64,000 bases of DNA from Pedococcus sp. (GCF_036554925.1 NZ_DATBMI010000189.1:10224-74223), one strand, 5' to 3'. Positions 4,141 through 44,426 are shown, numbered from the stretch's first letter. Notes: generated by a model not told the origin, from the sequence alone. Translations and numbers: made by a program.

Positions 4141-4458
4141 TGGTGCCCCCTTAGCGTGGTCCCCACCACAAGCACTTCCAGAAGGCCGGGCCCCGATGCG
4201 GGATGACACGAGGTCCTGCAGTCACACGCCGACCAGTCGAGGCTAGCAGCGGGGAAAGGTCGCGTCGACGCCCCGCAGCGGCCGCGCCATCCGGGGGTGA
4301 ACGGGGTCTGTCGTCGACAAACACATGAGTGCTTCCCACCTGAACGGCTGAGGTGCCCCGAAGTCGCCGGTGGCATTCTTCTGACAGCCGCCGTTCCGAG
4401 AGTCACCGCATGACCGAGAACAGCGGGTCTGCCTGCGTCAACCCCCGGCCAGGCACAT

Positions 4459-9742: not shown

Positions 9743-11155
9743 CTAGCCGCCTCTCCGGTCGCGGGCGTCGAGCAGGCGGGCCGGCAGCATCGTGAGCTCA
9801 CGGCGGGGCAGGCCGGTGGCGACCTCCCAGCACCGGTCGAGGGTCTGGTCCATCGAGCGGTGTTCATGGCGCTGCTGGTCGAGCAGCCCGCGCTCGAACG
9901 CGGTGGCGAACTCCAGGTAGAGCTGGTCGGTCTTGTTCAGGGCAGCACTGCCGACGATCTCCGCGAGCTCGCGCACCTGGCGGGCGCGGGCCAGGGCGGC
10001 GAGCAGCTGCGCGGCGAGGTCGAGGTGGTCCTCCCGGGTGCGACCAGCCCCTGCCCCGTTGCGCATCAGCCTGGACAGCGACGCCAGAGGATCGACGGGG
10101 GGGTAGATGCCTCGCGCGTGCACGTCGGCAGCCAGCACGATCTGGCCCTCGGTGATGTAACCCGTGAGGTCGGGGACCGGGTGCGTGATGTCACCGGCAG
10201 GCATCGTCAGGACGGGCATGATCGTGATGGAGCCGGCTCTGCCTCGGACCCGCCCGCAGCGCTCGTACAGCGTGGCGAGGTCGCTGTAGAGATACCCCGG
10301 GTAGGCGCGCCGGCCGGGGAGCTCACCTCGAGCCGCGGAGACCTCGCGCAGTGCCTCGGCATAGCTGGTCATGTCGGCCAGCACGACGAGGACGTGGCGG
10401 CCTCCTTCGAAGGCGAGGTGCTCGGCGACGGTGAGGGCGATGCGGGGGGTGAGGATCCGCTCGATCACCGGGTCGTCGGCGGTGTTGACCAGCAGCAGGA
10501 GCTCGCCGGCGCCGAGGCGCTCCTCGAGCGCGCCGCGGATGGCATCCGCATCGGCGTGGGTGAGACCCATGCCCGCGAAGACGACGCTGAACGGGTCCGT
10601 GCCCGTGTGGGACTGTGCCGCGATCTGGGCCGCGAGCTCGAGGTGCGGCAGTCCGGCGACCGAGAAGATGGGCAGCTTCTGCCCCCGCACGAGGGTCGTC
10701 AGGGCGTCGATGGCGGAGATGCCGGTCAGGACGGGGTCACCGGGACGGTCGCGGTGGGTCGGGTTGAGGGGGTGCCCGGCGACCGGCATCCGCAGGGAGG
10801 CAGAGACCGGCGGGCCACCGTCGACCGGCTCCCCCCGCCCGTTGCAGACCCGGCCCAGCCAGCTCGCAGTGACGGGGACCCGCACCGGCTCTCCGGAGAA
10901 GGCGACGCTGGCCCTGCGCGGGACCAGCCCCTCGGTTCCCTCCAGCACCTGGACCACGGCAAGGTCGTGGTCGACCTCCAGGACGACGCCGTGGCGTGCG
11001 GACGCGCCCTCTCCACCGACCCGGATGAGGGCCGCCTCGTCCCAGCCGACGCCAGCGACCCCACGCACCAGGAGCAGCGGACCGTGCAGCTCCTCCACGT
11101 CGGAGTACACGACCCCGAGACCCGTGGCGCGGCCCCGGGCGGTTGCGCTGGTCAT
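9743..11155 (-). CDS. atpB: A/V-type ATPase subunit B (non-catalytic)
   Basis: 470 aa. GQKLPIFSVAGLPH, PGRRAYPGYLYSDLATLYERCG and ITEGQIVL. Its ATG overlaps the subunit A stop (ATGA at 11152-11155). Confidence 0.9.
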   Translation of the reverse strand: MTSATARGRATGLGVVYSDVEELHGPLLLVRGVAGVGWDEAALIRVGGEGASARHGVVLEVDHDLAVVQVLEGTEGLVPRRASVAFSGEPVRVPVTASWLGRVCNGRGEPVDGGPPVSASLRMPVAGHPLNPTHRDRPGDPVLTGISAIDALTTLVRGQKLPIFSVAGLPHLELAAQIAAQSHTGTDPFSVVFAGMGLTHADADAIRGALEERLGAGELLLLVNTADDPVIERILTPRIALTVAEHLAFEGGRHVLVVLADMTSYAEALREVSAARGELPGRRAYPGYLYSDLATLYERCGRVRGRAGSITIMPVLTMPAGDITHPVPDLTGYITEGQIVLAADVHARGIYPPVDPLASLSRLMRNGAGAGRTREDHLDLAAQLLAALARARQVRELAEIVGSAALNKTDQLYLEFATAFERGLLDQQRHEHRSMDQTLDRCWEVATGLPRRELTMLPARLLDARDRRGG

Positions 11156-12876
11156 GGCAGGCTCCGCAGGCGCTCCAGGACCTGTTGCCGGCGGGCGAGC
11201 ACGCCATCCACCCCGTCGGGGGGTGTCTCGTCCGCGGCGCGCAGCAGCGGGGAGAAGTCCACCTCCTCGATCTCGGAGGCGGTCACGCCGCGGCCGACCA
11301 GCTGGTCGCACTCGTCGACGACGGCGAGGACGGCGTCGACCAGCGACGCCGTCTTGGCGGCGGTGCAGTGCGCATCGTTCGCAGAGAGCGCGCTCTGCTG
11401 GAGGACGGCCTCGCGCACCAGCCTGCCACCGAGCAGGACGACGCGCTCGTGGCCGGGCAGCGAGCCGGTGCCGACCAGTGCCGCGAGGTCGCCGAGCCGG
11501 TCCGCCTCGGCGAGCAGGCTCGTGACCCGGGCCCGGCGGTGGCCCCACTCCGGGTCGCCGTGGCGCGCGTACCAGCGTGCGATCGTGTCGGCGTCACGGG
11601 TGAAGGACCCTGCCCAGGCGACAGCGGGGTAGTGGCGGGCATAGGCAAGGTCGCGGTCGAGGGTCCACACCCCGCGGACGAAGCGCTCGGTCTGTGCGGT
11701 GACCGGCTCCGTGACATCGCCGCCGGGTGGCGACACCGCGCCGATGATGGTGACGGAGGCCGTCTCTCCCCCGAGGGTGGTGACGCGGCCGGCGCGCTCG
11801 TAGAACGCGGCGAGCGCCGACGGCAGCGACGCTGGGTAGCCCTCCTCGGCGGGCAGGGCGCCCGAGCGTGAGGCGAACTCCCGCAGGGCCTCCGCCCACC
11901 GGGAGGTCGAGTCGGCGATCACCACCGCGTCGTAGCCCATGTCCCGGAAGTACTCGGCGACGGTCACGCCGGTGTAGATGCTCGCCTCCCGAGCCATCAT
12001 GGGCATGTTCGAGGTGTTGGCGATGACCACGCTGCGCTCGGCCAGCCGCCGGCCGGTGCGCGGGTCGGACAGGGAACCGAACTCCTCCAGCACGTCCGCC
12101 ATCTCGTTGCCACGCTCCCCGCAGCCGACGTAGACGATCACGTCCGCTGCGCACCACTTGGCGACCTGCTGGAGCAGCATCGTCTTGCCGGTGCCGAAGC
12201 CGCCCGGGACTGCCGCGCTGCTGCCCCGCGCGAGCGGGTACACGGCATCGAGCACGCGCTGCCCCGTGAGCAGGGGCTCGCCGGCGGCGAGGCGCTCTCG
12301 AACCGGGCGGGCGTGGCGCACCGGCCACTCCGTCGTCATGAAGACGCGCAGCCCCGAGACGGAGGCCACGTGGTCACGCGAGTCGTGCTCGCCGGGCGGT
12401 GCGAGCCAGTCCACCCGGCCACGGACCGCGGGCGGTACCAGCACGCGGAGCTCCAGGCTCGCTGGGCCCCGGAGGGTCCCCAGCGTGGCTCCCTCGGTCA
12501 CGGTGGCGCCTTCGACCACCGAGGGCTGCCACCGCCAGGTGCCGGCGGCCTCACGCCGACCGCCGTCGGGGACGAGCCAGGTCGGGGCGCCGGACAGTGG
12601 ACGCAGCAGGCCGTCGAACACCCCGCCCAGGAGGTGGGGGCCGAGCCGCGCGGACAGCGGGTGGCCCAGGGCTGCAGCGGGGTCCCCTGCAGCGAGGCCA
12701 CCGGTGTGCTCGTAGGCCTGCACGGTGACAGCCGAGCCCCGGATCGACACGACCTCTCCGGTGATGCCCTGCGCGCCGAGCGCCACGAGCTCGGACATGG
12801 CGACATCGGTCAGCGGCTCGACCTCCAGGAGAGGGCCGTTGACCCGCACGATCCGCGGACTCAGCTGGGCGTCCAC
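11152..12876 (-). CDS. atpA: A/V-type ATPase catalytic subunit A
   Basis: 574 aa. Walker A is PGGFGTGKTMLLQQ, followed by GERGNEM and VVIADSTSRWAEALRE. The non-homologous insert typical of A subunits is present. Confidence 0.92.
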   Translation of the reverse strand: MDAQLSPRIVRVNGPLLEVEPLTDVAMSELVALGAQGITGEVVSIRGSAVTVQAYEHTGGLAAGDPAAALGHPLSARLGPHLLGGVFDGLLRPLSGAPTWLVPDGGRREAAGTWRWQPSVVEGATVTEGATLGTLRGPASLELRVLVPPAVRGRVDWLAPPGEHDSRDHVASVSGLRVFMTTEWPVRHARPVRERLAAGEPLLTGQRVLDAVYPLARGSSAAVPGGFGTGKTMLLQQVAKWCAADVIVYVGCGERGNEMADVLEEFGSLSDPRTGRRLAERSVVIANTSNMPMMAREASIYTGVTVAEYFRDMGYDAVVIADSTSRWAEALREFASRSGALPAEEGYPASLPSALAAFYERAGRVTTLGGETASVTIIGAVSPPGGDVTEPVTAQTERFVRGVWTLDRDLAYARHYPAVAWAGSFTRDADTIARWYARHGDPEWGHRRARVTSLLAEADRLGDLAALVGTGSLPGHERVVLLGGRLVREAVLQQSALSANDAHCTAAKTASLVDAVLAVVDECDQLVGRGVTASEIEEVDFSPLLRAADETPPDGVDGVLARRQQVLERLRSLP

Positions 12877-13372
12877 AGCGGCTCCAGGTCGAGCTTCGCG
12901 AGGGCGCTGTCCACCAGCGTGCCGATGGACGCGTCGATGCTGCGCCCGTCGGGCGCCTGGGCGAAGAGGCCCCCGTCCTCCGTGTCGCTCACACTGGCGA
13001 ACCCACCCAGTCCGCGCTGCACCGCCGCGGAGAGGAGGCTCCGGTTCCCGGGTTCTCGGAGGAGCTCGTGCACGGCCCGGACCGCGCCGCTGCGCAGCTC
13101 CTCGTATGCCGCGCGCTGGGCTGCGAGGAGCGCGGCACGGGCCGATCGCCGGACCGTGGCCTGCTCGGCCGCGAGCGCCTCTGCACCATCCACCTCGCCC
13201 TGGGCGCGGGCCGCCGAGAGCACGGCGTCCGCCTGGCCGCGGGCGGCTGTGACGGCGTTCTCGCCGTCGGCCTCGGCACTCGCGCGCACACGGTCTGCCT
13301 CGGCGCCGGCCCGGGCAAGCAGCGCCTGCCGAAGCGGCTGGAGCGCCGTCTGCTGTCTGGTCACGAGGTCAC

Positions 13373-13376
<4 letters not shown>
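12861..13376 (-). CDS. atpE: A/V-type ATPase subunit E (peripheral stalk)
   Basis: 171 aa. Long Ala/Arg-rich N-terminal helix with a globular C-terminus. Position and size fit subunit E. ATGA overlap with subunit F. Confidence 0.65.
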
Positions 13377-15432
<2,056 letters not shown>

Positions 15433-15446
<14 letters not shown>

Positions 15447-16356
15447 CGAGGGCCTCCGTGGGTCCGCCACCGCGTGCAGCGACCTCCAGGGCGGCGCGCA
15501 CCCGCCACGCATCGACGGCCAGGAGTGCCACGGCGCCCACCAGCACGCCACGGCCGGTGCCGGCATGGCGCACGAGCGCCGTCGCGTCTGCGTCCACCCG
15601 TGCCCACCAGCGCGCCTCGGCACGCCACAGGGCGTCAGGGCGCTCGACGCCGGCCAGGGCCCACCGGGCCCTGGCGGGTAGCGCCGCCGCCAGCTCGGGA
15701 AGGGAGGTCGCGGACACGGCTGCGGGGCCGATGACACGGGAGGCGGCCAGACGCGCGCGCTCGGGCAGGCGACGGCCCTCGAGGACCACCTCCCGGGCCA
15801 CGAGCAGCGCCGTTGCCCCCGACGCCCAGGCACCGGCCTCGGGCACCGCAGCCACGACCCGGTCGGCGAGCGTGGTCCGCAGCCACAGCGTGATCTCGCG
15901 CGGGGACTCTCCTCCGGGGTCACCCCACGCGGAGGCCGCCAAGGCCCTCCGGAGGCCGGGAGCGCTCGTGGTCCGCTGGAGCCGGGGCCAGGCCGTGGCC
16001 AGGCCACCGAGGCGGAAGGGGGCGGGCGGCTGCCCACCGGCGAGCCGCTCGAGGTGGTCCTGGACGTTGGCCGCCTCGAGCACCGCGATGAGCACCCGGA
16101 GGACGGTCACGCCCTCGCGAGGCACCCAGCCTGCCAGGACCCGTACGTTCCAGGCGGTCACATCGACCACCGCGCGCTGGACCTCGGACAGTGTCTGTCC
16201 GGGGCGGACCTGGCGCCCGTAGGTGGACCGGGCCAGCTCCACCACCGCTGCCTCGACCGACGGGTGCGATGCGAGCCGGACGCAGCCGGCCCGGCCGAGG
16301 CGGCGCCTGGTCATGGCGCGGGCTCGGACACCCGCGGCCACCCAGCCGGCCCTCAC
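15433..16356 (-). CDS. atpC: A/V-type ATPase subunit C (d-type)
   Basis: 307 aa, all-helical and Ala/Arg-rich. Size and operon position fit the C/d subunit. GTGA overlap with the upstream gene. Confidence 0.6.
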
Positions 16357-16823
16357 GTCGCACCAGCGCGGTGCTGCGGGGCGGGGACGCCGTCTTCCAG
16401 GACCGACCGGACGGAGGCGACGACCTGCTCGACGTACCGTGGCATCGCCTCGGCCGCGTGCTGGCGAACCGCCGCCACCTGGCGCTCCGCGTCGGCGGTC
16501 GTGGAGCCGAGCCGTGCCCTCCCGAGCCCGACGACCCTCGCCGCTGCATCGGCGCGCTCCGCTGCCTCGAGGGAGTGGGCCGTGGCGAGGACGACACGAG
16601 CGGCGTCGGCCTCGCGTGCCCGGATCGCGTCAGCCTCCCGGTGCGCCCACCGCACGATCTCGGCGCAGTCGTGCTGGGTCTGGCTCAGGCTGCCGAAGAC
16701 CGGTTCGAGCTCGACCGCCTGTTCGAGGGCACGGTCTGCGGGCACGCCTGCTGCGGTCGCGGCGCCGGGCGCCCCGGACGGACGGAAGCGGTACAGCAGG
16801 TCACGTACCCGAGGCATGGACAC
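16353..16823 (-). CDS. probable A/V-type ATPase peripheral-stalk subunit (G/H-like)
   Basis: 156 aa. It is the first cistron of the operon, with a long charged helix (EADAIRAREADAARVVLATAHSLEAAERADAAAR). The assignment rests on context. Confidence 0.45.
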   Translation of the reverse strand: MSMPRVRDLLYRFRPSGAPGAATAAGVPADRALEQAVELEPVFGSLSQTQHDCAEIVRWAHREADAIRAREADAARVVLATAHSLEAAERADAAARVVGLGRARLGSTTADAERQVAAVRQHAAEAMPRYVEQVVASVRSVLEDGVPAPQHRAGAT

Positions 16824-17026
16824 CCCTTGTCATCGAGCGGCCGACCTGCGTGCTCCGTGGGCGACGCCGGTGCCCGGCCCACCTGTCACGACTGTAGGCG
16901 GCGGAGCAGGGGACGTCTGGGGGCTTTGGTCCCCCGCCCGCAGGGACACCACCCGCCGTTCCCCTCGCGGCGGGATACTGCGGAGGTGAGCAGAGCTGCC
17001 CTCCGAGCCCGTGGACGGGGCGCGCG

Positions 17027-20000
17027 GTGACGATGCTGCGCGGCGACCGCGCGGCACCCCCGAGGACGCTGGTCGAGATCTTCCGTCAGACGGCGCGCGA
17101 CTGCGGCGAGCACCCGGCCCTGGACAACGGCGTGGACGTGCTGACGTACGCCGAGCTGGCCGAGGCCGCGGACGACGTGGCCGCCGAGCTGAACGCGCTC
17201 GGGATAGGCATCGGCGCCAGGGTCGGGGTCCGCATCCGCTCGGGGACCACCGAGCTCTACACCGCCATCCTGGGGATCCTCTTCGCCGGCGCCGCCTACG
17301 TGCCCGTCGACGCCGACGACCCGGACGAGCGTGCCCGCACGGTCTTCGGGGAGGCGCAGGTCGCGGCGGTCATCGGCGACGACCTCGAGATCACGGGCGT
17401 CCGGGGCCGCACGTCGGCGCTCGCGGCGGCGGAGCCCGAACCCCACCACGACGCGTGGATCATCTTCACCTCGGGCTCCACGGGCCTGCCGAAGGGCGTG
17501 GCGGTGTCCCACCGTTCCGCGGCGGGGTTCGTGGACGCGGAGTCGCGCCTCTTCCTGCAGGACCGCCCCATCGGGGTGAACGACCGGGTCATGGCGGGGC
17601 TGTCGGTCGCCTTCGACGCGTCGTGCGAGGAGATGTGGCTGGCGTGGCGCCACGGTGCCTGCCTGGTGCCCGCTCCCCGCTCGCTGGTGCGCAGCGGAAT
17701 GGACCTCGGTCCCTGGCTCGTCGCCAACGAGATCACCATCGTCTCCACCGTGCCGACCCTGGTCGCGCTCTGGCCGCAGGACGCGCTGGCCGAGGTCCGC
17801 CTGCTCATCCTGGGCGGCGAGGCCTGCCCCCCGGAGCTCGGGGAGCGGCTCGCGTCGCCCGAGCGGGAGGTCTGGAACACCTACGGGCCCACCGAGGCGA
17901 CGGTGGTGGCGTGCGCCGCCCGGCTCGACGGCGTGCCACCTGTCCGCATCGGCCTGCCCCTGGACGGGTGGGACCTCGCGGTGGTGGACACGGAGGGCGG
18001 ACACGTCGCGCCAGGGGAGACCGGCGAGCTGGTGATCGGCGGCATCGGGCTGGCGCGGTACCTCGACCCCGACAAGGACGCCGAGAAGTACGCGCCCATG
18101 GAGTCCCTGGGCTGGGAGCGCGCCTACCGCAGTGGCGACCTGGTCCGCTACGACGAGGCCGGGCTGGTCTTCGTGGGACGGGCCGACGACCAGGTGAAGG
18201 TGGGCGGCCGCCGGATCGAGCTCGGTGAGATCGACAGTGCGCTGCTCTCCCTTCCCGGTGTCGTGGGGGCGGCGGCCGCCGTTCGCAGGACCGGCTCGGG
18301 CAACACCGTCCTGGTCGGCTACCTCGCCCTCGAGGACGGCTTCGACGTCGACGCCTCGCTCGAGGTGCTGCGCGCCCGGCTCCCCACCCCGCTGGTGCCA
18401 CGGCTCGCCGAGGTCGAGGTCCTCCCGACGCGCACCTCGGGGAAGATCGACCGCGACGCGCTGCCCTGGCCGGTGCCCACCCTGGGGGCGACCCGGGCGG
18501 AGCCGCTGGTGCTCAGCGGCACTGCGGCCTGGCTCCAGGAGCTGTGGCTGGAGATCCTCGGGGCGGTCGTGACCGACCTGTCCGACGACTTCTTCGACGT
18601 GGGTGGAGGCAGCCTGACGGCGGCCCACCTGGTCTCCAGGCTGCGCTCGCAGTTCCCCGAGGCCACCGTGGCCGACATCTACGAGCGGCCCACGCTGGGC
18701 GCCATGGCCTCCGCGCTCGACGAGATGGCAAAGCCTGCCGCCACGACCAACCGCAGCGTGCGCCCGGTGCCGCTCCGGACCCAGCTCGGGCAGGTCGCGT
18801 TCACGGTCCCGCTGCGCACCCTGACCGGGCTGCGCTGGGTCACCTGGGTGGCGGCCGGCAACAACGTCGCAGCGGCCTGGCTGGGGGTGGCCTGGGTGCC
18901 GACAGCCCCCTGGTGGGCGGTCGCGGCCGGGTGGCTGGCGCTGGTCACCCCGGTGGGCCGGATGCTGGTCACGGTCCTGGGCGCCCGGGTGCTGCTGCGC
19001 GGCGTCGAGCCGGGGGAGCATCCCCGCGGAGGGCAGGTGCACCTGCGTCTCTGGGCCGCCGAGCGCCTGGCCGACGAGATGGGTGCGGCCAACATCGCAG
19101 GCGCCCCGTGGATGCGCCTCTATGCCCGCGCGCTCGGGGCCAGGGTCGGCAAGCACGTCGACCTGCACGCCGTGCCGCCGGTGACGGGAATGCTCAGCCT
19201 CGGCGACGAGTGCTCCATCGAGCCGGAGGTCGACCTCAGCGGCCACTGGCTGGACGGTGACATCCTGCACCTCGGACACATGGCGGTCGGCACGCGGGCG
19301 CGCGTCGGCGCACGGAGCATGCTCTGCCCGGGCGCCTCGATCGGGGCGCGGGCGGAGGTGGCGCCCGGCAGTGCGGTGTTCGGGGAGGTGCCCGAGAGGG
19401 AGTCGTGGGCGGGCTCCCCGGCGCGCGGCACCGGCCGGGCCCGGGGCCCGTGGGACGACGCCCGTCCGCTCAACCGCCCGAGGTGGCTGTGGGCGTATGC
19501 CGCGATGGCCGTCGTCATCGCGACCCTGCCCGTGCTCGCGGTGGTCGCCGGCCTGGCGGCGGTCTGGCCCTGGCTCGGTGCCACCGGGTCGCTGGGGGAG
19601 GGCGCGCGTGCCGCGCTGGTGTGGCTGCCGGTCGCGGTGGTGGTCGGCCTGGCCGTGCTGGCACTGCTCGTCTGGGCGCTGGTCCGGCTCCTCGAGCTGG
19701 GCCTCACCAGCGGCCACCACCCCATCCACGGACGGCAGGCCTGGCAGGCGTGGTCGATCATCAGGGTGCTCGACGAGGCCCGCACCTGGCTGTTCCCGCT
19801 GTACTCGAGCGCCCTCACCCCGGCGTGGCTGCGGGCGCTCGGCGCCCGGATCGGGGCCGACGTCGAGGCCTCCACCGTGCTTCTCATCCCGAAGCTCACG
19901 TGGGTCAACGACGGCGCCTTCCTCGCCGATGACACGCTGCTCGGCGGCTACGAGCTGGGCGGCGGATGGCTGCGCGTCGAGCACGTCAAGGTCGGCAAGC

Positions 20001-20878
20001 ACGCCTTCGTCGGGAACTCCGGGATGACCGCGCCCGGCCGCCGCGTGCCCAAGCGAGGCCTGGTCGCGGTGCTCTCCGCCGCTCCCCGCCGGACCAAGGC
20101 CAAGGCTGGCACGTCGTGGCTCGGGAGCCCGCCCACGGAGCTGCGACGGCCCGTCGAGGAGGGCGACACGAGCCGCACCTACCACCCGGCGACGCGGCTC
20201 AGGGTGGCCCGCGCCCTCGTGGAGCTGTGCCGGCTGCTCGCGGTCTTCGCCCACGTTGCGCTCTTCCTCGGTGTGGTCCTCGCCATCGAGCTGCTCGCGC
20301 AGACGGGCTGGTGGCTGCCTGCCGGGCTGACCGGGCTGGTGCTCCTGGCCGCGGGTGCCGTCGCCGCGGCGGTGGCCGCCGTGGCCAAGTGGGTGCTCGT
20401 GGGGCGCGTCAGGGTTCGCGACTTCCCGCTGTGGAGCTCCTTCGTCTGGCGCACCGAGCTGGCCGACTCCTTCATCGAGGTCGTCGCCGCACCATGGTTC
20501 GCCCGCGGAGCGACAGGGACCCCGGTGCTCAACGTGTGGCTGCGGGCCCTGGGGGCGCGGATCGGCACGGGCGTCTGGTGTGAGACCTACTGGCTGCCGG
20601 AGCCCGACCTGGTGGACCTGCAGGACGGCTCGACCGTCAACCACGGCTGCGTGGTGCAGACCCACCTGTTCCACGACCGAAGGCTCCAGCTCGGCACCGT
20701 GACCCTGCGCTCGGGAGCGACGCTCGGACCCAACGGCGTCATTCTGCCGGCCACCGTCCTCGGAAGGCACGCTACCGTCGGACCCGTGTCACTGGTGATG
20801 AGAGGCGAGACCGTTCCGGACAAGACGCGCTGGATCGGCAACCCCATCGGTCCGTGGGCCGAGGACGACGACGAGTGA
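17027..20878 (+). CDS. pls: Pls/PosA-family single-module NRPS (homopoly-amino-acid synthetase-like)
   Basis: 1283 aa. A-domain cores: FTSGSTGLPKG, AFDASCEEMW, NTYGPTE, YRSGDL, GRADDQVKVGGRRIELGEID and SGKIDR. PCP motif FFDVGGGSLTAAHL. Three repeats follow, each of two TM helices plus a hexapeptide-like soluble domain beginning W(M/L)R..ALGAR(V/I)G. Start is GTG 17027 or ATG 17033. Confidence 0.9.
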   Translation: MTMLRGDRAAPPRTLVEIFRQTARDCGEHPALDNGVDVLTYAELAEAADDVAAELNALGIGIGARVGVRIRSGTTELYTAILGILFAGAAYVPVDADDPDERARTVFGEAQVAAVIGDDLEITGVRGRTSALAAAEPEPHHDAWIIFTSGSTGLPKGVAVSHRSAAGFVDAESRLFLQDRPIGVNDRVMAGLSVAFDASCEEMWLAWRHGACLVPAPRSLVRSGMDLGPWLVANEITIVSTVPTLVALWPQDALAEVRLLILGGEACPPELGERLASPEREVWNTYGPTEATVVACAARLDGVPPVRIGLPLDGWDLAVVDTEGGHVAPGETGELVIGGIGLARYLDPDKDAEKYAPMESLGWERAYRSGDLVRYDEAGLVFVGRADDQVKVGGRRIELGEIDSALLSLPGVVGAAAAVRRTGSGNTVLVGYLALEDGFDVDASLEVLRARLPTPLVPRLAEVEVLPTRTSGKIDRDALPWPVPTLGATRAEPLVLSGTAAWLQELWLEILGAVVTDLSDDFFDVGGGSLTAAHLVSRLRSQFPEATVADIYERPTLGAMASALDEMAKPAATTNRSVRPVPLRTQLGQVAFTVPLRTLTGLRWVTWVAAGNNVAAAWLGVAWVPTAPWWAVAAGWLALVTPVGRMLVTVLGARVLLRGVEPGEHPRGGQVHLRLWAAERLADEMGAANIAGAPWMRLYARALGARVGKHVDLHAVPPVTGMLSLGDECSIEPEVDLSGHWLDGDILHLGHMAVGTRARVGARSMLCPGASIGARAEVAPGSAVFGEVPERESWAGSPARGTGRARGPWDDARPLNRPRWLWAYAAMAVVIATLPVLAVVAGLAAVWPWLGATGSLGEGARAALVWLPVAVVVGLAVLALLVWALVRLLELGLTSGHHPIHGRQAWQAWSIIRVLDEARTWLFPLYSSALTPAWLRALGARIGADVEASTVLLIPKLTWVNDGAFLADDTLLGGYELGGGWLRVEHVKVGKHAFVGNSGMTAPGRRVPKRGLVAVLSAAPRRTKAKAGTSWLGSPPTELRRPVEEGDTSRTYHPATRLRVARALVELCRLLAVFAHVALFLGVVLAIELLAQTGWWLPAGLTGLVLLAAGAVAAAVAAVAKWVLVGRVRVRDFPLWSSFVWRTELADSFIEVVAAPWFARGATGTPVLNVWLRALGARIGTGVWCETYWLPEPDLVDLQDGSTVNHGCVVQTHLFHDRRLQLGTVTLRSGATLGPNGVILPATVLGRHATVGPVSLVMRGETVPDKTRWIGNPIGPWAEDDDE

Positions 20879-22185
20879 CGCCCACCGCGACCGCCGTCGA
20901 CGACTACCTCCCGGGGCACGGCGACTGCACCTACGACGTCCGCCACTACGACCTTGCCCTCGAGTACAAGGTCGTCGGAAACCACCTGTCGGCGCGGGCC
21001 ACTCTCACCGCCGTCGCCGTGGAGGAGGTCGACTGGTTCGGCCTCGACCTCCATGCGCTGCACGTGGCCAAGGTCGTCGTGGACGGCGCCCGCGCCAGGT
21101 ACACGCACCGCGCCGGCAAGCTCGTCGTGCATCCCCGCGAGTCGCTGGCGCGTGGTCAGGAGTTCACGGTCACCGTCACCTACCAGGGGCACCCGACCAC
21201 CGTCCCGGGCATCGACGGCGAGGCGGGGTGGGAGGAGCTGCACGACGGCGTCATCGTGGCGGCGCAGCCGCATGGAGCCCCGTCGTGGTTCCCGTGCAAC
21301 GACAGGCCGTCGAACAAGGCGAGCTACCGGATCTCGGTGGCGGCAGCCACGGCATACCACGTCGTTGCCAACGGCAGGCTGGTCGACCAGCACCGGGGCG
21401 CCAGCCGGACCACGTGGGTCTACGACCAGCCGGAGCCGATGGCCACGTACCTCGCCACGGTGCAGATCGGCCGCTACGGCAGCCGCCTGCTCGCCACCGA
21501 GCCGGTGCCCATCCACGCGCTGAGGTCCGCGGCGCTGGCCCGTCGGGCCGACACCGCGCTCACGCGCCAGCCCGACATGATGGCGGTGTTCACACGGCGC
21601 TTCGGGCCGTACCCCTTCGCCGGGTACACCGTCGTCGTCACCGACGACGCGCTCGAGATCCCCCTGGAGGCGCAGGGCCTGGCCACCTTCGGCGCCAACT
21701 ACGCCACGACGGACTGGGACTCGGAGCGCCTGCTCGCGCACGAGCTGGCGCACCAGTGGTTCGGGAACAGCCTGACGGTCCGGTCCTGGCGCGACATCTG
21801 GCTGCACGAGGGTTTTGCCTGCTACGCCGAGTGGCTCTGGTCCGAGGAGTCCGGCGGACGCCCCGCAGACGCGCACGCCCAGCAGCACTGGCGGCGCCTG
21901 GCCCGGCTGCCGCAGGAGCTCATCCTCGCCGACCCGGGCCCAGACCTGATGTTCGACGACCGGGTCTACAAGCGGGGCGCACTCGTGCTCCACGCCCTGC
22001 GGCTCACCCTGGGGGACGAGACCTTCTTCGAGATGCTGCGCGCCTGGGTGGGCGCCAACGCCTACGGCACGGTGACCACGGGCATGTTCGTGGCACACGT
22101 CCAGCAGCACGCCGGCCGCCCGGTGGGTGGCCTGCTCGACCCCTGGCTGTTCGCCGGCCCGCTGCCTGCGCTGCCGGGGTCGTGA
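20875..22185 (+). CDS. cytoplasmic M1-family zinc metallopeptidase, translationally coupled to the NRPS
   Basis: HELAHQWFGN...WLHEGFACYAEW gives HEXXH-x18-E. GTG 20875 overlaps the NRPS TGA as GTGA (alternative GTG 20854). No signal peptide or TM segment. Confidence 0.85.
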   Translation: MTPTATAVDDYLPGHGDCTYDVRHYDLALEYKVVGNHLSARATLTAVAVEEVDWFGLDLHALHVAKVVVDGARARYTHRAGKLVVHPRESLARGQEFTVTVTYQGHPTTVPGIDGEAGWEELHDGVIVAAQPHGAPSWFPCNDRPSNKASYRISVAAATAYHVVANGRLVDQHRGASRTTWVYDQPEPMATYLATVQIGRYGSRLLATEPVPIHALRSAALARRADTALTRQPDMMAVFTRRFGPYPFAGYTVVVTDDALEIPLEAQGLATFGANYATTDWDSERLLAHELAHQWFGNSLTVRSWRDIWLHEGFACYAEWLWSEESGGRPADAHAQQHWRRLARLPQELILADPGPDLMFDDRVYKRGALVLHALRLTLGDETFFEMLRAWVGANAYGTVTTGMFVAHVQQHAGRPVGGLLDPWLFAGPLPALPGS

Positions 22186-22207
22186 CGGCGGCCGCGCGGC
22201 GCACGGG

Positions 22208-22441
22208 CTACCCGGCGACGACCTCTTCCTGGGCCTCCTCTCCCCGGCGGCCCATCGCCGTCAGCTGGGCGCGGGCCTCTCTCTCGACCAGCAGCGGCAC
22301 GTAGTCGCGAACCGGCCCGTCGAAGCGGGCGTGAACCTGCTCGACCGTGGCCCGCACCTGTGCGGCGGGCAGATGGGGGAAACGCGTCCCCAGCCTCTGG
22401 CAGACCTCCTCGAGGGCCTGGCGCTCATCCAGCTTCGACAT
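22208..22441 (-). CDS. small conserved actinobacterial protein (three-helix-bundle dimerisation-domain-like)
   Basis: About 77 aa. ALEEVCQRLGTRFPHLPAAQVRATVEQVHARFDGPVRDYVPLLVEREARAQL matches a pattern I recall from this family. Alternative GTG start at 22459. Confidence 0.5.
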   Translation of the reverse strand: MSKLDERQALEEVCQRLGTRFPHLPAAQVRATVEQVHARFDGPVRDYVPLLVEREARAQLTAMGRRGEEAQEEVVAG

Positions 22442-22689
22442 GGGAGCACTGTCCCCCACGGGGGCAGTGCTGACACCCCCCCAGGGGGACTAGTCCGTGC
22501 CCCTGCTCAGGCTGGCCCGCCCGCGGCCACGGTCGTGACCGGCGCCGGCGTGAAGAGGCCGGCGACGGCCTCGTACGACGACAGCAGCGGCGGGAGCGTC
22601 CGCACCCGACGCCAGCGGCGCCCCCTCACCCTCGCCACCTGTTGCGGACCGAGTTGCCGGCCTGCGGGGCGAGCAGGCATGGTGCCGCC

Positions 22690-23991
22690 ATGACCCCCAC
22701 CAGAGCCCAGGACCTCGCCGAGACGGCCGAGCTCGCCGCCCGAGCCCGCAGGGTCGGTGGGGCGGGCACCTCGCTCAGCGAGGACGAGGTGACAGCGTTC
22801 GTCGCCGAGTCCCTGGCAGGGGTGGACCTCGACGGTCGCAGTGTGTGCCTGGTAGTGCCCGATGGGACGCGCAGCTGTCCCCTCCCTCTGCTGCTCAAGG
22901 CGATTCACGCAGCCCTGGCGGGGCGGGCGACCCGGACCACTGTCCTCATCGCCCTCGGCACGCATGCCGCCATGGACGACGCTGCCCTTGCCCGGCACCT
23001 GGGCCACCCCGAGGGCGGCCTCGACACGGCATACCCGGGGGTGACCGTGATGAACCACGAGTGGTGGGACCCCCAGACCTTCGTGTCCGTGGGCACGATC
23101 CCGTCCGAGAGGATCAGTGAGCTCTCGGAGGGCCGGCTCGACCAGGCGGTGGACGTCCGGCTGAACCGCCACGTCGTGGAGCACGACGTGGCACTCGTGG
23201 TGGGCCCGGTCTTCCCCCACGAGGTGGTCGGGTTCTCGGGCGGCAACAAGTACTTCTTCCCCGGCGTCGCCGGGCAGGAGGTCATCGACCTCTCCCACTG
23301 GCTGGGCGCCCTCATCACCAGCGCCGACATCATCGGCACCCGCGGCATCACGCCGGTGCGGGCCCTGATCAACGAGGCCGCCTCGCTCATCCCATCGGAG
23401 CGTCTGGCCCTCTGCCTCGTGGTGAAGTCGGGCAGCAGCGTCCTGCATGCGATCTCGTTCGGCGATCCCGAGTCGGCGTGGGCTGCCGCGGCGGAGGTGT
23501 CCGCGCAGACCCATGTGCGCTACCTCGACGCGCCGGTACGCCGGGTGCTGTCCATCATGCCGGAGAAGTACGAGGACATCTGGACCGCGGCCAAGGGGTT
23601 CTACAAGCTCGAGCCCGTGGTGGCCGACGGCGGCGAGGTGATCCTCTACGCGCCGCACGTCACCGAGATCGCCGCGATGCACCCCGAGATCAACGAGATC
23701 GGCTACCACTGCCGCGACTACTTCGTGAAGCAGTGGGACCGGTTCAAGCACGTGCACTGGGGCGTCCTCGCCCACTCCACGCACCTGCGTGGGGCCGGCA
23801 CCTATGACGAGGTGGGCGGAGAGAGGCTCCGGCTGACGGTGACCCTGGCCACGGGCATCCCCGAGGACGTCGTGCGCGCAGCCAACCTCGACTACCTCGA
23901 CCCACGCGAGGTGGATGTCGCGGCCTTCGAGGCCGACCCGGACACCCTCGTCGTCCCCCAGGCGGGGGAGGTCCTCTTCCGGCTCCGATGA
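22690..23991 (+). CDS. larA: LarA-family nickel-pincer-dependent 2-hydroxyacid racemase/epimerase
   Basis: VVPDGTRSCP, ALGTHAAM (catalytic His), FPHEVVGFSGGNKYFFPG (second His and the cofactor-tethering Lys) and IDLSHW. The ORF track start is TTG 22642. Confidence 0.85.
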   Translation: MTPTRAQDLAETAELAARARRVGGAGTSLSEDEVTAFVAESLAGVDLDGRSVCLVVPDGTRSCPLPLLLKAIHAALAGRATRTTVLIALGTHAAMDDAALARHLGHPEGGLDTAYPGVTVMNHEWWDPQTFVSVGTIPSERISELSEGRLDQAVDVRLNRHVVEHDVALVVGPVFPHEVVGFSGGNKYFFPGVAGQEVIDLSHWLGALITSADIIGTRGITPVRALINEAASLIPSERLALCLVVKSGSSVLHAISFGDPESAWAAAAEVSAQTHVRYLDAPVRRVLSIMPEKYEDIWTAAKGFYKLEPVVADGGEVILYAPHVTEIAAMHPEINEIGYHCRDYFVKQWDRFKHVHWGVLAHSTHLRGAGTYDEVGGERLRLTVTLATGIPEDVVRAANLDYLDPREVDVAAFEADPDTLVVPQAGEVLFRLR

Positions 23992-24198
23992 ACAGGCGAT
24001 CCCCCGCACCACTAGCCGGGTCAGCAGGACCCAGCGGCGCAGAGATGGGGGATGGGCACGAGCGTTGTGCGTGCCACGTGGCCGCCGGTGTGCTCCCACG
24101 GGCTGGGGCGAGGTCGACCGGGAGGGCGTGTTCCACACACAATGGTCGCTCGACAGGTCCGAGAACCAGATGACGGCCCCCAGGTGAGGTGAGCAGTG

Positions 24199-25050
24199 AT
24201 GTCGCACGACGCGACGTTCGGCGCGGACGGCCCCCGTGTGGCAGCGTTGACAGCCGGGCTGGCCGGCATCGACCGCCTCGGCGTCGCCTACTCGGGGGGT
24301 GTGGACTCAGCCACGCTGCTGGCGCTGGCCGTGCGGGCGCTGGGCAGCGGGCGGGTGCTCGCCATCCTGGGCGTCTCGCCGAGCCTCGCGTCGTCGGAAC
24401 GCGAGAAGGCCCATGAGGTCGCGGGGGTCATCGGTGTCCCGGTGGTCGAGGTCCGCACGCTGGAGGGGGACAGCCCCGCCTACCGCGCCAACGGCCCGGA
24501 CCGCTGTTTCCACTGCAAGGACGAGCTGTTCAGCCGCATCGACGACGAGGTCGTGACGGCACACGGCCTCGACGCGGTGGCGTACGGCGAGAACGCCGAT
24601 GATGCTCGACGGCCCGACCGGCCGGGGTCCCGGGCGGCGCAGGATCACCGGGTGCTGCGGCCGCTGGCCGACGCGGGCCTGGACAAGGAGGCGGTGCGCC
24701 GGATCGCCCGAGTGCTCGGGCTGCCCTGCGCGGACAAGCCGGCGGCCCCCTGCCTGGCCTCGCGCATCCCGCACTTCGAGGAGGTCTCGCCGGAGAAGCT
24801 CGCCCAGGTCGAGGCGGCCGAGGCGGCACTGCACAGCCTCGGGTTCCACGAGTGCCGGGTGCGCCACCACGGCGAGGTCGCGCGCGTCGAGCTGCTCGCC
24901 GACGACCTCGAGCGGGCGGTCGGCCCGCACCTTCGCGAGGCGGTCCACGCCGGAGTGCGCAGCGCCGGGTTCCGTTTCGTGGCCGTGGATCTGGCGGGGA
25001 TCCAGTCCGGCGCGTTCACGCTCCCACTGGTGTCGGTCTCCCATGGCTGA
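24199..25050 (+). CDS. larE: LarE, ATP-dependent sulfur transferase for the nickel-pincer cofactor
   Basis: PP-loop VAYSGGVDSATL. Cys-containing motifs are DRCFHCKDELF and APCLASRIPH. Confidence 0.85.
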   Translation: MSHDATFGADGPRVAALTAGLAGIDRLGVAYSGGVDSATLLALAVRALGSGRVLAILGVSPSLASSEREKAHEVAGVIGVPVVEVRTLEGDSPAYRANGPDRCFHCKDELFSRIDDEVVTAHGLDAVAYGENADDARRPDRPGSRAAQDHRVLRPLADAGLDKEAVRRIARVLGLPCADKPAAPCLASRIPHFEEVSPEKLAQVEAAEAALHSLGFHECRVRHHGEVARVELLADDLERAVGPHLREAVHAGVRSAGFRFVAVDLAGIQSGAFTLPLVSVSHG

Positions 25051-25726
25051 CGCAGCCTGGGAGCCGGGGGAGGCGCTGCGCGGGTTGGCGGAGCTCGACG
25101 ACGACCGTGCCGCGCGTCGTGGATACCCCGAGGCCGTCTACTGCGAGGGCAAGACGCCGGAGCAGGTGGCGGCCATCGCCGCGGAGGTGGCCAGACTCGG
25201 CCTGCGCACCCTGTTCACCCGGGCGGCACCCGCACACGCGAAGGCGGTGCTCGCGTCGCTTCCGGACGCGCACTACGCGGAAGGCGCGAGGCTACTCGCG
25301 TGGCCGCCGGAACCGCCCGCGGCCGAGGGCGGCAGGGTGCTCGTCGTGACGGCCGGCACCTCCGACCTCCCGGTCGCCGAGGAGGCGCTGCTGACCGCAC
25401 GTCACCTCGGGCGTGAGGGCGACCTCGTCGCCGACGTGGGGGTCGCCGGGCTGCACCGCATCCTCGGCCGGCTGGCGCAGCTGCGCGCGGCCCGCGTGAT
25501 CGTGGTGGTCGCGGGCATGGACGGGGCGCTGCCGAGCGTGGTCGCCGGGCTGGTCTCCGCTCCCGTGGTCGCCGTGCCGACCTCGGTCGGGTACGGCGCG
25601 GCCTTCGAGGGGCTCGCCCCGCTGCTCACCATGCTGAACAGCTGCGCGCCCGGCGTGGCCGTCGTCAACATCGACAACGGGTACGGCGCCGGGCACATGG
25701 CCGCCCAGATCGCCGCGCCCGTCTAG
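25043..25726 (+). CDS. larB: LarB, nicotinic acid adenine dinucleotide carboxylase/hydrolase (PurE-like)
   Basis: 227 aa. VLVVTAGTSDLPVAEEA, VVVAGMDGALPSVVAGLVSAPVVAVPTSVGYG. Overlaps the larE stop by 8 nt. Confidence 0.85.
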   Translation: MADAAWEPGEALRGLAELDDDRAARRGYPEAVYCEGKTPEQVAAIAAEVARLGLRTLFTRAAPAHAKAVLASLPDAHYAEGARLLAWPPEPPAAEGGRVLVVTAGTSDLPVAEEALLTARHLGREGDLVADVGVAGLHRILGRLAQLRAARVIVVVAGMDGALPSVVAGLVSAPVVAVPTSVGYGAAFEGLAPLLTMLNSCAPGVAVVNIDNGYGAGHMAAQIAAPV

Positions 25727-25893
25727 CGTCTCGCCGCCCCGGTCACCGCTGCACGTCCGGCCCGGTGGGAGCGGCGGCGGCCGTCCGCTCCCGCACGCGG
25801 GCCACGCTCGCCTCCGCCCACGCGCGCCCGCCAGGGCTGACGGCCCGGTCCATTGCTGTGCCACCGGCCGGTGCCGGACGTAGCGTGGGACGG

Positions 25894-27285
25894 GTGAGCC
25901 AGACACCGCGTCCCACGACCCTCGGCGAGCTCCGCTCCAACGGTCACCAGCACCGCACCGTCAAGCAGGAGCTCCGCGACAACCTCCTGTCCCGGCTGCG
26001 CGCGGGTCAGCCGGCCTTCCCGGGGATCGTGGGCTTTGACGACACCGTGCTGCCCGAGCTCGAGAGCGCACTCCTGGCGGGCCACGACCTCGTGCTCCTG
26101 GGCGAGCGCGGGCAGGGCAAGACCCGGCTCATGCGGACCATCGCGGGGCTGCTCGACGACTGGAGCCCGGTCGTGCACGGCTGCGAGATCAACGACGACC
26201 CGATCGCTCCGGTCTGCACACGGTGCCGACGACTGCTGGCCGAGCGCGGCGACGAGCTGCAGGTCGCGTGGCGCCACCGGTCGGAGCGGTACGCCGAGAA
26301 GCTCGCCACGCCGGACACCAGCGTCGGTGACCTCGTGGGTGACGTCGACCCTGTCAAGGTGGCCCAGGGGCGAACCCTGGGCGATCCCGAGACCGTCCAC
26401 TACGGACTCGTCCCGCGCACGAACCGCGGCGTCTTCGGCCTCAACGAGCTGCCCGACCTCGCCGAGCGGATCCAGGTCGCGCTCTTCAACGTCCTCGAGG
26501 AGCGCGACATCCAGATCCGGGGGTACTCCCTGCGCCTGCCCCTCGACCTCCTCCTGGTCGCCAGCGCCAACCCCGAGGACTACACCAACCGAGGGCGGAT
26601 CATCACCCCGCTGAAGGACCGGTTCGGTGCCGAGATCCGCACCCACTACCCGCTCGAGGTCGCCGACGAGACACGTCTGCTGACCCAGGAGGCCGGGCTG
26701 GTTGCCACCGTGCCCGAGCACCTCGTGGAGGTCGTGGCGCGGCTGGCCCGCGCCCTGCGCGAGTCGCCGTCGGTCGACCAGCGGTCCGGGATCTCGGCAC
26801 GGTTCGGCATCGCCGCGCTCGAGGGGGTGGCCGCGACCGCACTGCGTCGCTCCGCCCGTGCCGGCGAGCCCGAGCCCGTGGCCCGGGCGGGGGACCTGCC
26901 CGCGGTCGTGCCGACCCTGCTCGGCAAGGTCGAGTTCGAGATGGGAGAGGAGGGCCGGGAGCGCGACGTGCTCTCGCACCTGCTGCGCCTGGCCATGGCC
27001 GAGACCTTCCGTGAGCGGCTCGCGGGGCTCGACCTGGGCGGCTTCACCGGGCTCTTCGCCGAGGGCGCCGTCGTCGAGACCGGGGAGCTCGTGCCCGCGG
27101 TGCGGCTGCTCGAGCAGGTGGGCACCGTCTCGGGCCTGTCCAAGGTGCTCGACCGGCTCGGCCACGGCGACGACGCCTCTCCGGGCGTCGTGGCCTCGGC
27201 CGTGGAGTTCACGCTCGAGGGCCTGCACCTCACGCGGCGGCTGCAGAAGGACTCCGTGGCGGGCCGGACCGTCTACGGCGCCTAG
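25894..27285 (+). CDS. ChlI/BchI-like AAA+ ATPase
   Basis: Walker A is LLGERGQGKTRL. A Walker-B-like segment (RGVFGLNELPDL), then ALFNVLEERDIQIRGY and LLLVASANPEDY parallel Mg-chelatase subunit I. Start is GTG 25894 or 25885; the ORF track starts at 25765. Confidence 0.8.
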   Translation: MSQTPRPTTLGELRSNGHQHRTVKQELRDNLLSRLRAGQPAFPGIVGFDDTVLPELESALLAGHDLVLLGERGQGKTRLMRTIAGLLDDWSPVVHGCEINDDPIAPVCTRCRRLLAERGDELQVAWRHRSERYAEKLATPDTSVGDLVGDVDPVKVAQGRTLGDPETVHYGLVPRTNRGVFGLNELPDLAERIQVALFNVLEERDIQIRGYSLRLPLDLLLVASANPEDYTNRGRIITPLKDRFGAEIRTHYPLEVADETRLLTQEAGLVATVPEHLVEVVARLARALRESPSVDQRSGISARFGIAALEGVAATALRRSARAGEPEPVARAGDLPAVVPTLLGKVEFEMGEEGRERDVLSHLLRLAMAETFRERLAGLDLGGFTGLFAEGAVVETGELVPAVRLLEQVGTVSGLSKVLDRLGHGDDASPGVVASAVEFTLEGLHLTRRLQKDSVAGRTVYGA

Positions 27286-27287
27286 CC

Positions 27288-29312: not shown

Positions 29313-29416
29313 CGCGGCCCCGGCGGGCGGGCTCCGGCATCGTTGACCGGACCCGACGCAGGGATGATGCTGGCTGTGTCCCGGCTTTCTCGGTGCCTGT
29401 GGATGGGAGGGACGCG

Positions 29417-29821
29417 ATGGGCGACGACGACCAGGTGGTGGACAACGGTCAGCGAGTGTGGCGGGTCACGCCATCGGAGCGGACGGAGGGGCAGCCGACG
29501 CCGGGCATGCTGCGTGAGCAGGCGGTGTCGACCGAGGGGATGTGGGCCGGCTACGTGACCACGGGCCCCGGCATGGTGTCGGGCTGGCATCACCACGGCG
29601 ACCACGAGTCGAGCATCTACGTGATGTCGGGGGCCCTGCACATGGAGTTCGGCCCGGGCGGGGACCGCGCGCTCGACGCCGCCCCGGGCGACTTCGTCTA
29701 CGTTGCCCCGCACGCCATCCACCGCGAGGGCAACCCCACCGACGTCGAGTCCACCCTCATCGTGGTGCGCGCCGGCAGCGGGGAGGCGGTGTTCAACGTC
29801 GACGGGCCAGCGGCCCGGTAG
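29417..29821 (+). CDS. cupin-domain protein
   Basis: 134 aa. GWHHHGDHESSIYVMSG...GDFVYVAPHAIHREGN gives the two cupin His motifs. GGGAGG SD. Confidence 0.75.
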   Translation: MGDDDQVVDNGQRVWRVTPSERTEGQPTPGMLREQAVSTEGMWAGYVTTGPGMVSGWHHHGDHESSIYVMSGALHMEFGPGGDRALDAAPGDFVYVAPHAIHREGNPTDVESTLIVVRAGSGEAVFNVDGPAAR

Positions 29822-29906
29822 GTCCCGCGCCTACGTCATCGGACGCTTCCGGAGGCGGTGAGAAGGCGGACCATGGGACCTGCGCCGCGTACCCACGGGA
29901 GGTGTC

Positions 29907-30368
29907 ATGTCGTTCACCACCCTCATGGAGGACGTCACGCGTGCCTTCGAGGCCTGTGGGGTCCTCGTCCTCGTGGTCGGCCTGCTCTGGTCGCTGGCCC
30001 TCGCGGGCAGGGTCTGGCGGGCCACCCGGCACGGGCAGGAGGCCTACCGCGTCCTCCGGTCGTCGTTCGGCGCGGCGCTGCTCCTCGGCCTCGAGATCCT
30101 CGTGGCCGCGGACCTGATCAAGACCGTGGCGGTCGCGACCACTCTGGAGAACGTCGTCGTGCTGGGCCTGATCGTGCTCATCCGCACCTTCCTCAGCTTC
30201 TCGCTCGAGGTGGAGATCGAGGGGACCCTGCCCTGGCGCCGTGCCCTGGGCGGTGGCGCCGGCCTCCTCGCCCGCACCACAGCCGGTGGCCGGGGGCGGA
30301 CGCAGGACCACGGCGTGGACCCGCGAGACGCGACCGGGCAGACCGCGGCCGGCGAGGGACGGGGCTGA
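29907..30368 (+). CDS. DUF1622-like membrane protein
   Basis: 153 aa. FGAALLLGLEILVAADLIKTV and VLGLIVLIRTFLSFSLEVE are typical of DUF1622. Confidence 0.65.
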   Translation: MSFTTLMEDVTRAFEACGVLVLVVGLLWSLALAGRVWRATRHGQEAYRVLRSSFGAALLLGLEILVAADLIKTVAVATTLENVVVLGLIVLIRTFLSFSLEVEIEGTLPWRRALGGGAGLLARTTAGGRGRTQDHGVDPRDATGQTAAGEGRG

Positions 30369-30413
30369 CGCACCCGACCTGGGCGGGCCTCGACGCCGGC
30401 TCCGCCGTGACAG

Positions 30414-31637: not shown

Positions 31638-31670
31638 GGGACCCAACGTAGTGGACCGCGCTGCCGGTCA

Positions 31671-41091: not shown

Positions 41092-41094
41092 GGC

Positions 41095-43131: not shown

Positions 43132-43221
43132 GGTGGTGTCTCTCTGGGTCCGTGGTCGGTCGGGGTCGGTCGTGTCCGGGGTGGTGGGGGTGGTGGTGGG
43201 GCTCTTCTGGCAGGGGGCCGT

Positions 43222-44388: not shown

Positions 44389-44426
44389 GGTGATCCCGTC
44401 TGTGGGTGGTGCCGGCACTGATCTGC

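Follow-up and report, generated by a model that had tools for sequence, protein, structure and literature searches.

A probable two-gene cassette for a Pls-type ε-poly-L-lysine synthetase and a PldII-like peptidase in an uncultured actinobacterium near Pedococcus

The window analysed here, a stretch of 64,000 nucleotides from an uncultured actinobacterium near Pedococcus (Intrasporangiaceae), contains two overlapping genes that very probably constitute a cassette for a Pls-type ε-poly-L-lysine (ε-PL) synthetase and a PldII-type polymer-degrading peptidase. The first of these, the pls-like gene, encodes a membrane-associated nonribosomal peptide synthetase (NRPS) of the Pls/PosA family, and the second encodes an M1 zinc metallopeptidase. 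A first-pass annotation of the same DNA had proposed a Pls-type membrane NRPS, and the proposal is supported by the family model, the specificity code and the identity to Pls. That annotation was silent on the coupled peptidase, which is the strongest contextual evidence for the assignment.

The pls-like gene runs from a GTG start to a TGA stop in an uninterrupted frame of 1283 codons, and the open reading frame (ORF) call and its translation agree with the 1283-aa ORF of the first-pass annotation. An independent gene call by the Joint Genome Institute (JGI) on an identical contig places the start two codons later, at ATG 17033, which gives a protein of 1281 aa. A 100%-identical protein (P0001) is recorded on a JGI metagenome contig (sample 3300049592). 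The G+C content at third codon positions (GC3) is 0.94 in a window of 72% G+C, which indicates that this is the true coding frame, unlike many spurious ORFs in the window.

The N-terminal part of the protein matches the Pfam families AMP-binding (aa 19-344, E 6e-59) and PP-binding (PF00550, aa 502-564, E 4e-12), and NCBIfam TIGR01733 matches the adenylation (A) domain at 324 bits against a cut-off of 317. Neither Condensation nor Thioesterase gave a Pfam match in the synthetase at E<=0.01. The C-terminal part belongs to NCBIfam TIGR02353 ('Pls/PosA family NRPS'), which scores 706.3 bits against a cut-off of 423.1 and aligns aa 589-1274 with positions 3-695 of a 695-position profile. The protein thus has the defining features of the Pls/PosA family: a TIGR02353 score above cut-off and a single A domain with a single carrier domain, free of condensation and thioesterase domains, together with the paired helices and beta-helix repeats described below. 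The core motifs A3, A5, A7, A8 and A10 of the A domain are intact (TSGSTGLPKG, NTYGPTE, YRSGD, GRADDQVKVGGRRIELGEI and PTRTSGKIDR), as is the phosphopantetheine serine of the carrier motif FFDVGGGSLTAAHL, which begins at aa 522 and includes FFDVGGGSL (aa 522-530).

The polymerisation domain that follows is built from three modules, each with a hairpin of two transmembrane (TM) helices and a soluble repeat (C1 to C3). The opening motifs of the three soluble repeats are spaced 235 and 237 aa apart, and the repeats are 25-29% identical in pairwise comparisons (E 1e-10 to 3e-17). A hydropathy scan resolved the helices as three pairs in which five of the six clear the threshold, the peak at aa 632-657 barely and TM1 falling below it, and a Pfam Hexapep match at aa 754-784 was borderline. 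An AlphaFold2 model of aa 575-1283 (aa 575 being model residue 1), computed from a 32-sequence alignment that reaches down to 48% identity, has a mean predicted local distance difference test score (pLDDT) of 79.7 and a predicted template modelling score (pTM) of 0.85. Six long helices form three hairpins in the model, each leading into short helices and a coil built of short strands; the C1 stretch is modelled less confidently (pLDDT 50-78). When the model was compared with the PDB using Foldseek, hexapeptide-repeat acyltransferases occurred at every rank among the best 50 matches listed, together with a few designed proteins. The matches included serine, galactoside and maltose acetyltransferases, GlmU, AntD and LpxD (best E 3e-4, probability 1.00), and the template modelling (TM) scores were low because the targets span one repeat only. 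Both the model and the Foldseek result agree with the model published for PosA, a helical bundle that carries three left-handed beta-helices (PMC10522769). The PDB copy searched holds no solved structure of a polymerisation domain.

In the 32-sequence alignment of the C-terminal domain, some 170 columns do not vary. They include the motif QTHLFHDR of repeat C3 (aa 1211-1218, nucleotides 20657..20680; alignment columns Q637..R644), which is a candidate for the catalytic histidine motif of the polymerisation domain. An equivalent of this motif was not noticed in C1 or C2. The architecture given by the first-pass annotation, an A domain and a carrier domain, neither a condensation nor a thioesterase domain, and three repeats each preceded by two TM helices, is matched by the domain scans, the hydropathy profile and the model, and all the motifs quoted there were recovered in place, WMRLYARALGARVG and FFDVGGGSL included. 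Homology of the repeats to C1-C3 of Pls is established by the TIGR02353 profile search and by an identity of 48% over 695 aa between the C-terminal domains of the window protein and a Streptomyces Pls.

The specificity code of the A domain, read at residues 197, 198, 201, 240, 261, 263, 285, 293, 294 and 473, is DAESIGTVVK. As a check on the columns, 34 signature positions were mapped by pairwise alignment onto the A domain of the Pls of S. albulus (PDB 7WEW). The mapped 7WEW signature matches letter for letter the NRPSpredictor2 signature of BAG68864 (PMC8117764 Data Set S3), and because that signature is reproduced exactly the code columns are right. The 34-residue signature of the window protein, FAELFDASCEELSTILGGEWNTYGPTEATVVACA, is the same as that of the Claviceps and Epichloe enzymes and differs at two residues from that of S. 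albulus. S. albulus Pls has the code DAESIGTVVK too, with lysine entered as its experimentally confirmed substrate (PMC10522769 Supp. Table 2), and NRPSpredictor2 returns this code for all seven ε-PL synthetases listed as experimentally confirmed (PMC8117764 Data Set S3), which are those of S. albulus, S. roseoverticillatus, S. celluloflavus, Kitasatospora, C. variabile, Epichloe and Claviceps (PMC8117764). The first-pass annotation had read the same code by hand from five anchor motifs, all of which were located in the synthetase, and re-extraction returned a code identical to the Lys code of Pls. Its conclusion that the code is lysine-like stands; the codes cited in its support are unneeded, as DAESIGTVVK itself is published for Pls.

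Other members of the family have different published codes: DMEHNGTVSK in the ornithine-activating PosA, DFEYVGTVTK in the 2,3-diaminopropionate (Dap) synthetase, DFECLS.. in the 2,4-diaminobutyrate (Dab) synthetases and DGESVSVVNK in the beta-lysine synthetase. Position 2 is Met in PosA, Phe in the Dap and Dab enzymes, Gly in the beta-lysine enzyme and Ala in the window protein, and a Met to Ala mutation at this position of PosA raised its efficiency with lysine about ten-fold (PMC10522769). The code is also strongly conserved around the window protein, being shared by 113 of its 120 closest proteins in a large protein collection, with a conservative change at one position in the other seven.

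Overall sequence identity leads to the same group of enzymes. The best PDB match is 7wew_A, the A domain of 'Epsilon-poly-L-lysine synthase' (E 2e-181; identity 63.4%). Full-length proteins named Pls were retrieved by a protein search with an 818-aa Streptomyces fragment. One of these, P0260 (Streptomyces 'epsilon-poly-L-lysine synthase Pls', 1319 aa), matches 7WEW at 99.6% identity over the A domain and aligns end to end with the window protein at 53% identity over 1280 aa. Identities to the Pls-type proteins of S. roseoverticillatus, K. aureofaciens and S. gilvosporeus are 53-55%. PosA is more distant, with about 31% identity overall and about 29% in the C-terminal domain, figures that are approximate because the PosA sequence was machine-read from a supplementary table with small errors (1316 of 1332 residues). 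The window protein is therefore closer to Pls-type proteins (53-55%) than to PosA (31%); the Dap, Dab and beta-lysine synthetases were compared by their published codes only.

The second gene of the cassette follows in a GTGA overlap (Table 1), which implies that translation of the synthetase and the peptidase is coupled. Its product has the features that characterise a PldII-type enzyme, that is, an M1 fold, a HEXXH-X18-E motif, a position directly 3' of pls and a coupled junction. In a Streptomyces locus (L081), the one that carries P0260, pls is followed at the same GTGA junction by a gene for a 467-aa M1 peptidase which is 45% identical to the window peptidase over 432 aa (E 1e-124). PldII of S. 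albulus is an endo-type ε-PL-degrading enzyme whose gene adjoins pls and is translationally coupled to it, and it is reported to be active at the outer face of the membrane (PMC9223678); the properties of PldII used here were drawn from PMC9223678, PMC8117764 and PMC8506220. In a comparison of four types of synthetase, the operon with a peptidase is reported as specific to Pls, a context that distinguishes it from the Dap and Dab enzymes (PMC8117764). A motif scan of the window peptidase found no GxMEN exopeptidase motif, an absence that is compatible with endo-type hydrolysis of ε-PL.

The N-terminus of the window peptidase differs from that of its Streptomyces counterpart. A hydropathy scan and visual reading found no signal peptide, TM segment or twin-arginine N-terminus from either start, and by these two means only, the window protein has no feature that would place it at the outer membrane face. 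The Streptomyces peptidase, whose start at L081 9957..10040 was compared with 20854..20930 of the window, begins in contrast with VTRCSRRALIRGAALLPFAATVA / SRRALIRGAALLPFAATVA, which resembles a twin-arginine (Tat) leader. Many non-Streptomyces homologues likewise begin straight in the conserved domain without a leader, as judged from the clear cases only; comparison of N-termini by in-frame upstream extension is noisy in that open frames run far upstream at high G+C and starts are uncertain. If the start and the leader reading are correct, the window peptidase would be cytoplasmic. Elsewhere in the window, a second gene for an M1 zinc peptidase (2626..4209, minus strand) encodes a protein of 527 aa with HELAH and a signal-peptide-like stretch, MSARTRTTGAVLAALAAAAVAVPGATPVAALAAEP, that is 34.5% identical to the PldII-like protein. 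S. albulus possesses a second ε-PL-degrading enzyme, Pld.

The pairing of the two genes extends well beyond the window. A scan of one genome per species confirmed at least 585 relatives among 600 candidate stretches, and 80 of these were kept as related loci. All 80 carry DAESIGTVVK. A peptidase homologue follows pls in 76 of them and directly abuts it in about 72, and the other neighbours of pls in the window occur in none. Since only the peptidase is kept across the 80 loci, the conserved unit is the two-gene cassette. The genera represented include Nocardioides, Rhodococcus, Nocardia, Mycobacterium, Mycolicibacterium, Kribbella, Gordonia, Tsukamurella, Kocuria, Brachybacterium and Amycolatopsis, among others. 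The nearest named relatives of the synthetase are from Pedococcus species (73-75% identity), and a protein from a metagenome-assembled genome is 85% identical. This distribution is in line with earlier surveys. Homologues of Pls that share the pocket have been reported from across the coryneform actinobacteria (PMC8117764). In a sequence similarity network, the ε-PL code occurs in clusters made up of Streptomyces and other Actinobacteria, which were assigned to ε-PL, and the tabulated carriers of DAESIGTVVK extend even to cyanobacteria, fungi and an entry for Mycobacterium (PMC10522769). The first-pass annotation had implied that a poly-lysine polymer from a non-Streptomyces lineage would be a novelty. 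That was overstated, because Pls homologues with the same code are already documented across Actinobacteria (PMC8117764, PMC10522769), one such enzyme has been proven functional and relatives number at least 585.

A working mechanism can be proposed by analogy with the characterised enzymes. The A domain, in the cytoplasm, would adenylate L-lysine in the DAESIGTVVK pocket, where the Glu at code position 3 may contact the side-chain amine, by analogy with Glu221 of the PosA structure, and the small Ala at position 2 would leave space for the four-methylene side chain. The A domain would then load lysine onto the carrier domain as a thioester. The three membrane hairpins and the three diverged, beta-helix acyltransferase-like repeats probably assemble as one pseudo-trimer, and this C-terminal domain would act repeatedly, passing the lysyl group on to an ε-amine that belongs either to free lysine or to the growing chain, itself free, with no need of a condensation or thioesterase domain. 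The polymer may exit through or along the membrane part of the protein. The M1 peptidase, presumably translated together with the synthetase by way of the GTGA junction, would cut the polymer, either for self-protection or for turnover. Of this scheme, the sequence itself documents the domain content, the code, the homology to Pls and to the Streptomyces peptidase, and the coupled junction with its conservation; the chemistry, the ε-linkage, the chain length, export and the substrate of the peptidase are carried over from work on related enzymes.

Several points weigh against the assignment of the cassette to ε-PL. No product is on record for the window gene or its close relatives, and the window itself is metagenome DNA. 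Specificity codes in the Pls/PosA family are not always predictive: the nearest match to the PosA code is a Lys domain, yet PosA prefers ornithine, a substrate that the standard predictors failed to name (PMC10522769), although PosA has Met rather than Ala at position 2. It is the C-terminal domain, just 48% identical to that of Pls, that determines how the residues are linked and how long the chain becomes. The Pls of C. variabile gives no detectable native ε-PL in its own host (PMC8117764), and genes of this kind may therefore be silent in the laboratory. Finally, the site at which the window peptidase acts may differ from that of PldII because it lacks a Tat-like leader.

The alternative that survives best is that the cassette makes an L-lysine polymer whose product or role is unlike that of the Streptomyces antibiotic, either with much shorter or longer chains or as a cell-associated polymer with cytoplasmic turnover that serves the envelope or the stress response. 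The very wide distribution of the cassette, the invariance of the code in the 80 loci, the peptidases without signal peptide here and in many relatives, the silence of the native host in the sole case tested, C. variabile (PMC8117764), and the dependence of chain length on linker residues of the synthetase (PMC9223678) all speak for it. This alternative is nonetheless unlikely, as the C. variabile enzyme, which is equally far from Pls, gave an ordinary 26-35-mer when expressed heterologously, no sign of another product is evident in the sequence, and the comparison of N-termini is subject to the noise described above. One form of the idea would extend to many non-Streptomyces actinobacteria, in which a cytoplasmic peptidase would accompany a polymer with a conserved physiological role (envelope charge, stress or nitrogen storage) and not a secreted antibiotic; this, too, must be considered improbable. 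Were the peptidase indeed cytoplasmic, the chain length or location of the polymer might differ from those of Streptomyces ε-PL.

It is less probable still that the synthetase, while belonging to the Pls/PosA family, polymerises another cationic monomer, such as ornithine, 2,4-diaminobutyrate, 2,3-diaminopropionate, beta-lysine or arginine. The family does include synthetases for all these monomers, the PosA case illustrates how a lysine-like code can mislead, and Mobilicoccus, an actinobacterium of a related order, has a Dap-type code. All ten code positions of the window protein, however, are those of the Lys code, with Ala at the discriminating position 2, and both the greater identity to Pls than to PosA (53% against 31%) and the reported specificity of the peptidase operon for Pls (PMC8117764) argue for a lysine-activating enzyme. 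That the gene is an inactive remnant, or permanently silent and without a product, is barely credible: scans of 16300..22700 for sigma-70 promoters and intrinsic terminators gave no site and the native C. variabile gene is not expressed in culture (PMC8117764), but the negative scan says little because its E. coli-type consensus is a poor detector in an actinobacterium of 72% G+C, and the long uninterrupted frame with its high GC3, the intact A-domain motifs and carrier serine, and the many columns that stay invariant down to 48% identity speak against it.

The features of the cassette and of its neighbourhood are collected in Table 1. A short ORF divergent from pls matched no Pfam or NCBIfam family and is not present in the 80 related loci. 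Beyond it lies an operon for a V/A-type ATPase (9743..16037), upstream of pls on the opposite strand; the starts of its ORFs as listed overlap and are over-extended. Downstream of pls, a set of genes for the nickel-pincer nucleotide cofactor occupies 22642..31646. The V/A-ATPase operon and the Lar genes were considered as members of the cassette and rejected, as none occurs in the 80 related loci. Further downstream, a rhamnose-utilisation cluster (39670..50120) includes genes for an FGGY sugar kinase, a fusion of aldolase and short-chain dehydrogenase, a RhaA-like isomerase, a solute-binding protein and an alpha-L-rhamnosidase.

Table 1. Positions in the window of the cassette, the domains of its synthetase and the neighbouring genes
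Feature	Position	Strand	Evidence or remark
pls-like gene, single A-carrier module with membrane polymerisation domain	17027..20878	+	ORF, GC3, 53% to P0260
Adenylation domain, aa 11-485, code DAESIGTVVK	17057..18481	+	PDB 7wew_A best match, TIGR01733
Carrier (PCP/T) domain, aa 502-564	18530..18718	+	PF00550; FFDVGGGSL motif
Helical hairpin 1 (TM1-TM2), ~aa 583-656	18773..18994	+	model helices 9-45, 55-82
Soluble repeat C1, opens with WMRLYARALGARVG (nt 19109), beta-helix-like	18995..19477	+	C1/C2 identity 29%, E 3e-17; Hexapep
Helical hairpin 2 (TM3-TM4), ~aa 818-890	19478..19696	+	hydropathy 2.59, 2.88; model helices 244-276, 282-316
Soluble repeat C2, AWLRALGARIG at nt 19823	19697..20191	+	repeat match, motif, model
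Helical hairpin 3 (TM5-TM6), ~aa 1056-1124	20192..20398	+	hydropathy 2.42, 2.36; model helices 482-517, 522-550
Soluble repeat C3, VWLRALGARIG at nt 20534, best-modelled beta-helix	20399..20875	+	pLDDT mostly >85; fold matches
GTGA overlap, peptidase GTG start sharing three bases with pls TGA stop	20875..20878	+	sequence; same 4-base overlap in JGI call
PldII-like M1 zinc metallopeptidase, 436 aa	20875..22185	+	PF01433, PF17900, HELAH-X18-E
Divergent 154-aa ORF, 210 bp upstream of pls	16353..16817	-	also called by JGI on identical contig
V/A-ATPase catalytic B subunit	9743..11548	-	
V/A-ATPase catalytic A subunit	11152..12876	-	
V/A-ATPase c-subunit domain	13609..14688	-	
V/A-ATPase 116-kDa I-subunit homologue	14040..16037	-	
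LarA-like racemase/epimerase	22642..23991		best 'NPN_18_hexonate' 168 bits, far under cut-off 500
LarE	24196..25050		TIGR00268, 270 bits vs cut-off 150
Chelatase-like AAA ATPase	25765..27285		between LarE and LarC
VWA protein	27288..29312		between LarE and LarC
LarC	30414..31646	-	PF01969, 422 bits

The window gene is a new example of its kind and nothing new in kind, its code, architecture and partner being those of characterised enzymes. Its clade is already reported as widespread in Actinobacteria, and hundreds of species of actinobacteria have the same pair of genes. ε-Poly-L-lysine is sold as a food preservative, and each further synthetase is a possible source of other chain lengths; the practical use of the window gene is as another candidate for heterologous expression. 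If any aspect merits a closer look, it is only that outside Streptomyces the partner peptidase seems to lack an export signal.

One of the closest known systems is that of S. albulus (BAG68864; 7WEW). Its Pls has the same order of A domain, carrier domain and three units of two TM helices and a soluble repeat, with no part missing from the window protein, as well as the same 10-residue code, and a GTGA-coupled M1 peptidase gene lies downstream, as read in the Streptomyces locus L081. The window protein is 36 aa shorter than S. albulus Pls and is 63% identical to it in the A domain and 48% in the C-terminal domain, and the genes that flank the two loci are different. With respect to PldII, the window peptidase is alike in its place after pls, in coupling, in M1 fold and in HEXXH-X18-E, and it shares 45% identity with the Streptomyces protein in the PldII position; it differs in having neither a Tat-like leader nor a hydrophobic N-terminus, unlike the Streptomyces homologue. 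PosA of A. baumannii, which makes δ-poly-L-ornithine, shares TIGR02353 and the architecture and has a code whose first and third residues are likewise Asp and Glu, and its C3 motif is QTHLFEDR where the window protein has QTHLFHDR. PosA differs in its code and in being encoded by a single-gene operon without a peptidase (PMC10522769). The Pls of C. variabile DSM 44702, as described in PMC8117764, is a non-Streptomyces enzyme with the same code and the peptidase operon, though from a different order (Mycobacteriales) than the window host; its identity to S. albulus Pls is 51%, against 31-33% to Dap and Dab synthetases, and in S. coelicolor it produced ε-PL of 26-35 residues. At 53% identity, the window protein is about as far from Pls as this enzyme of proven function.

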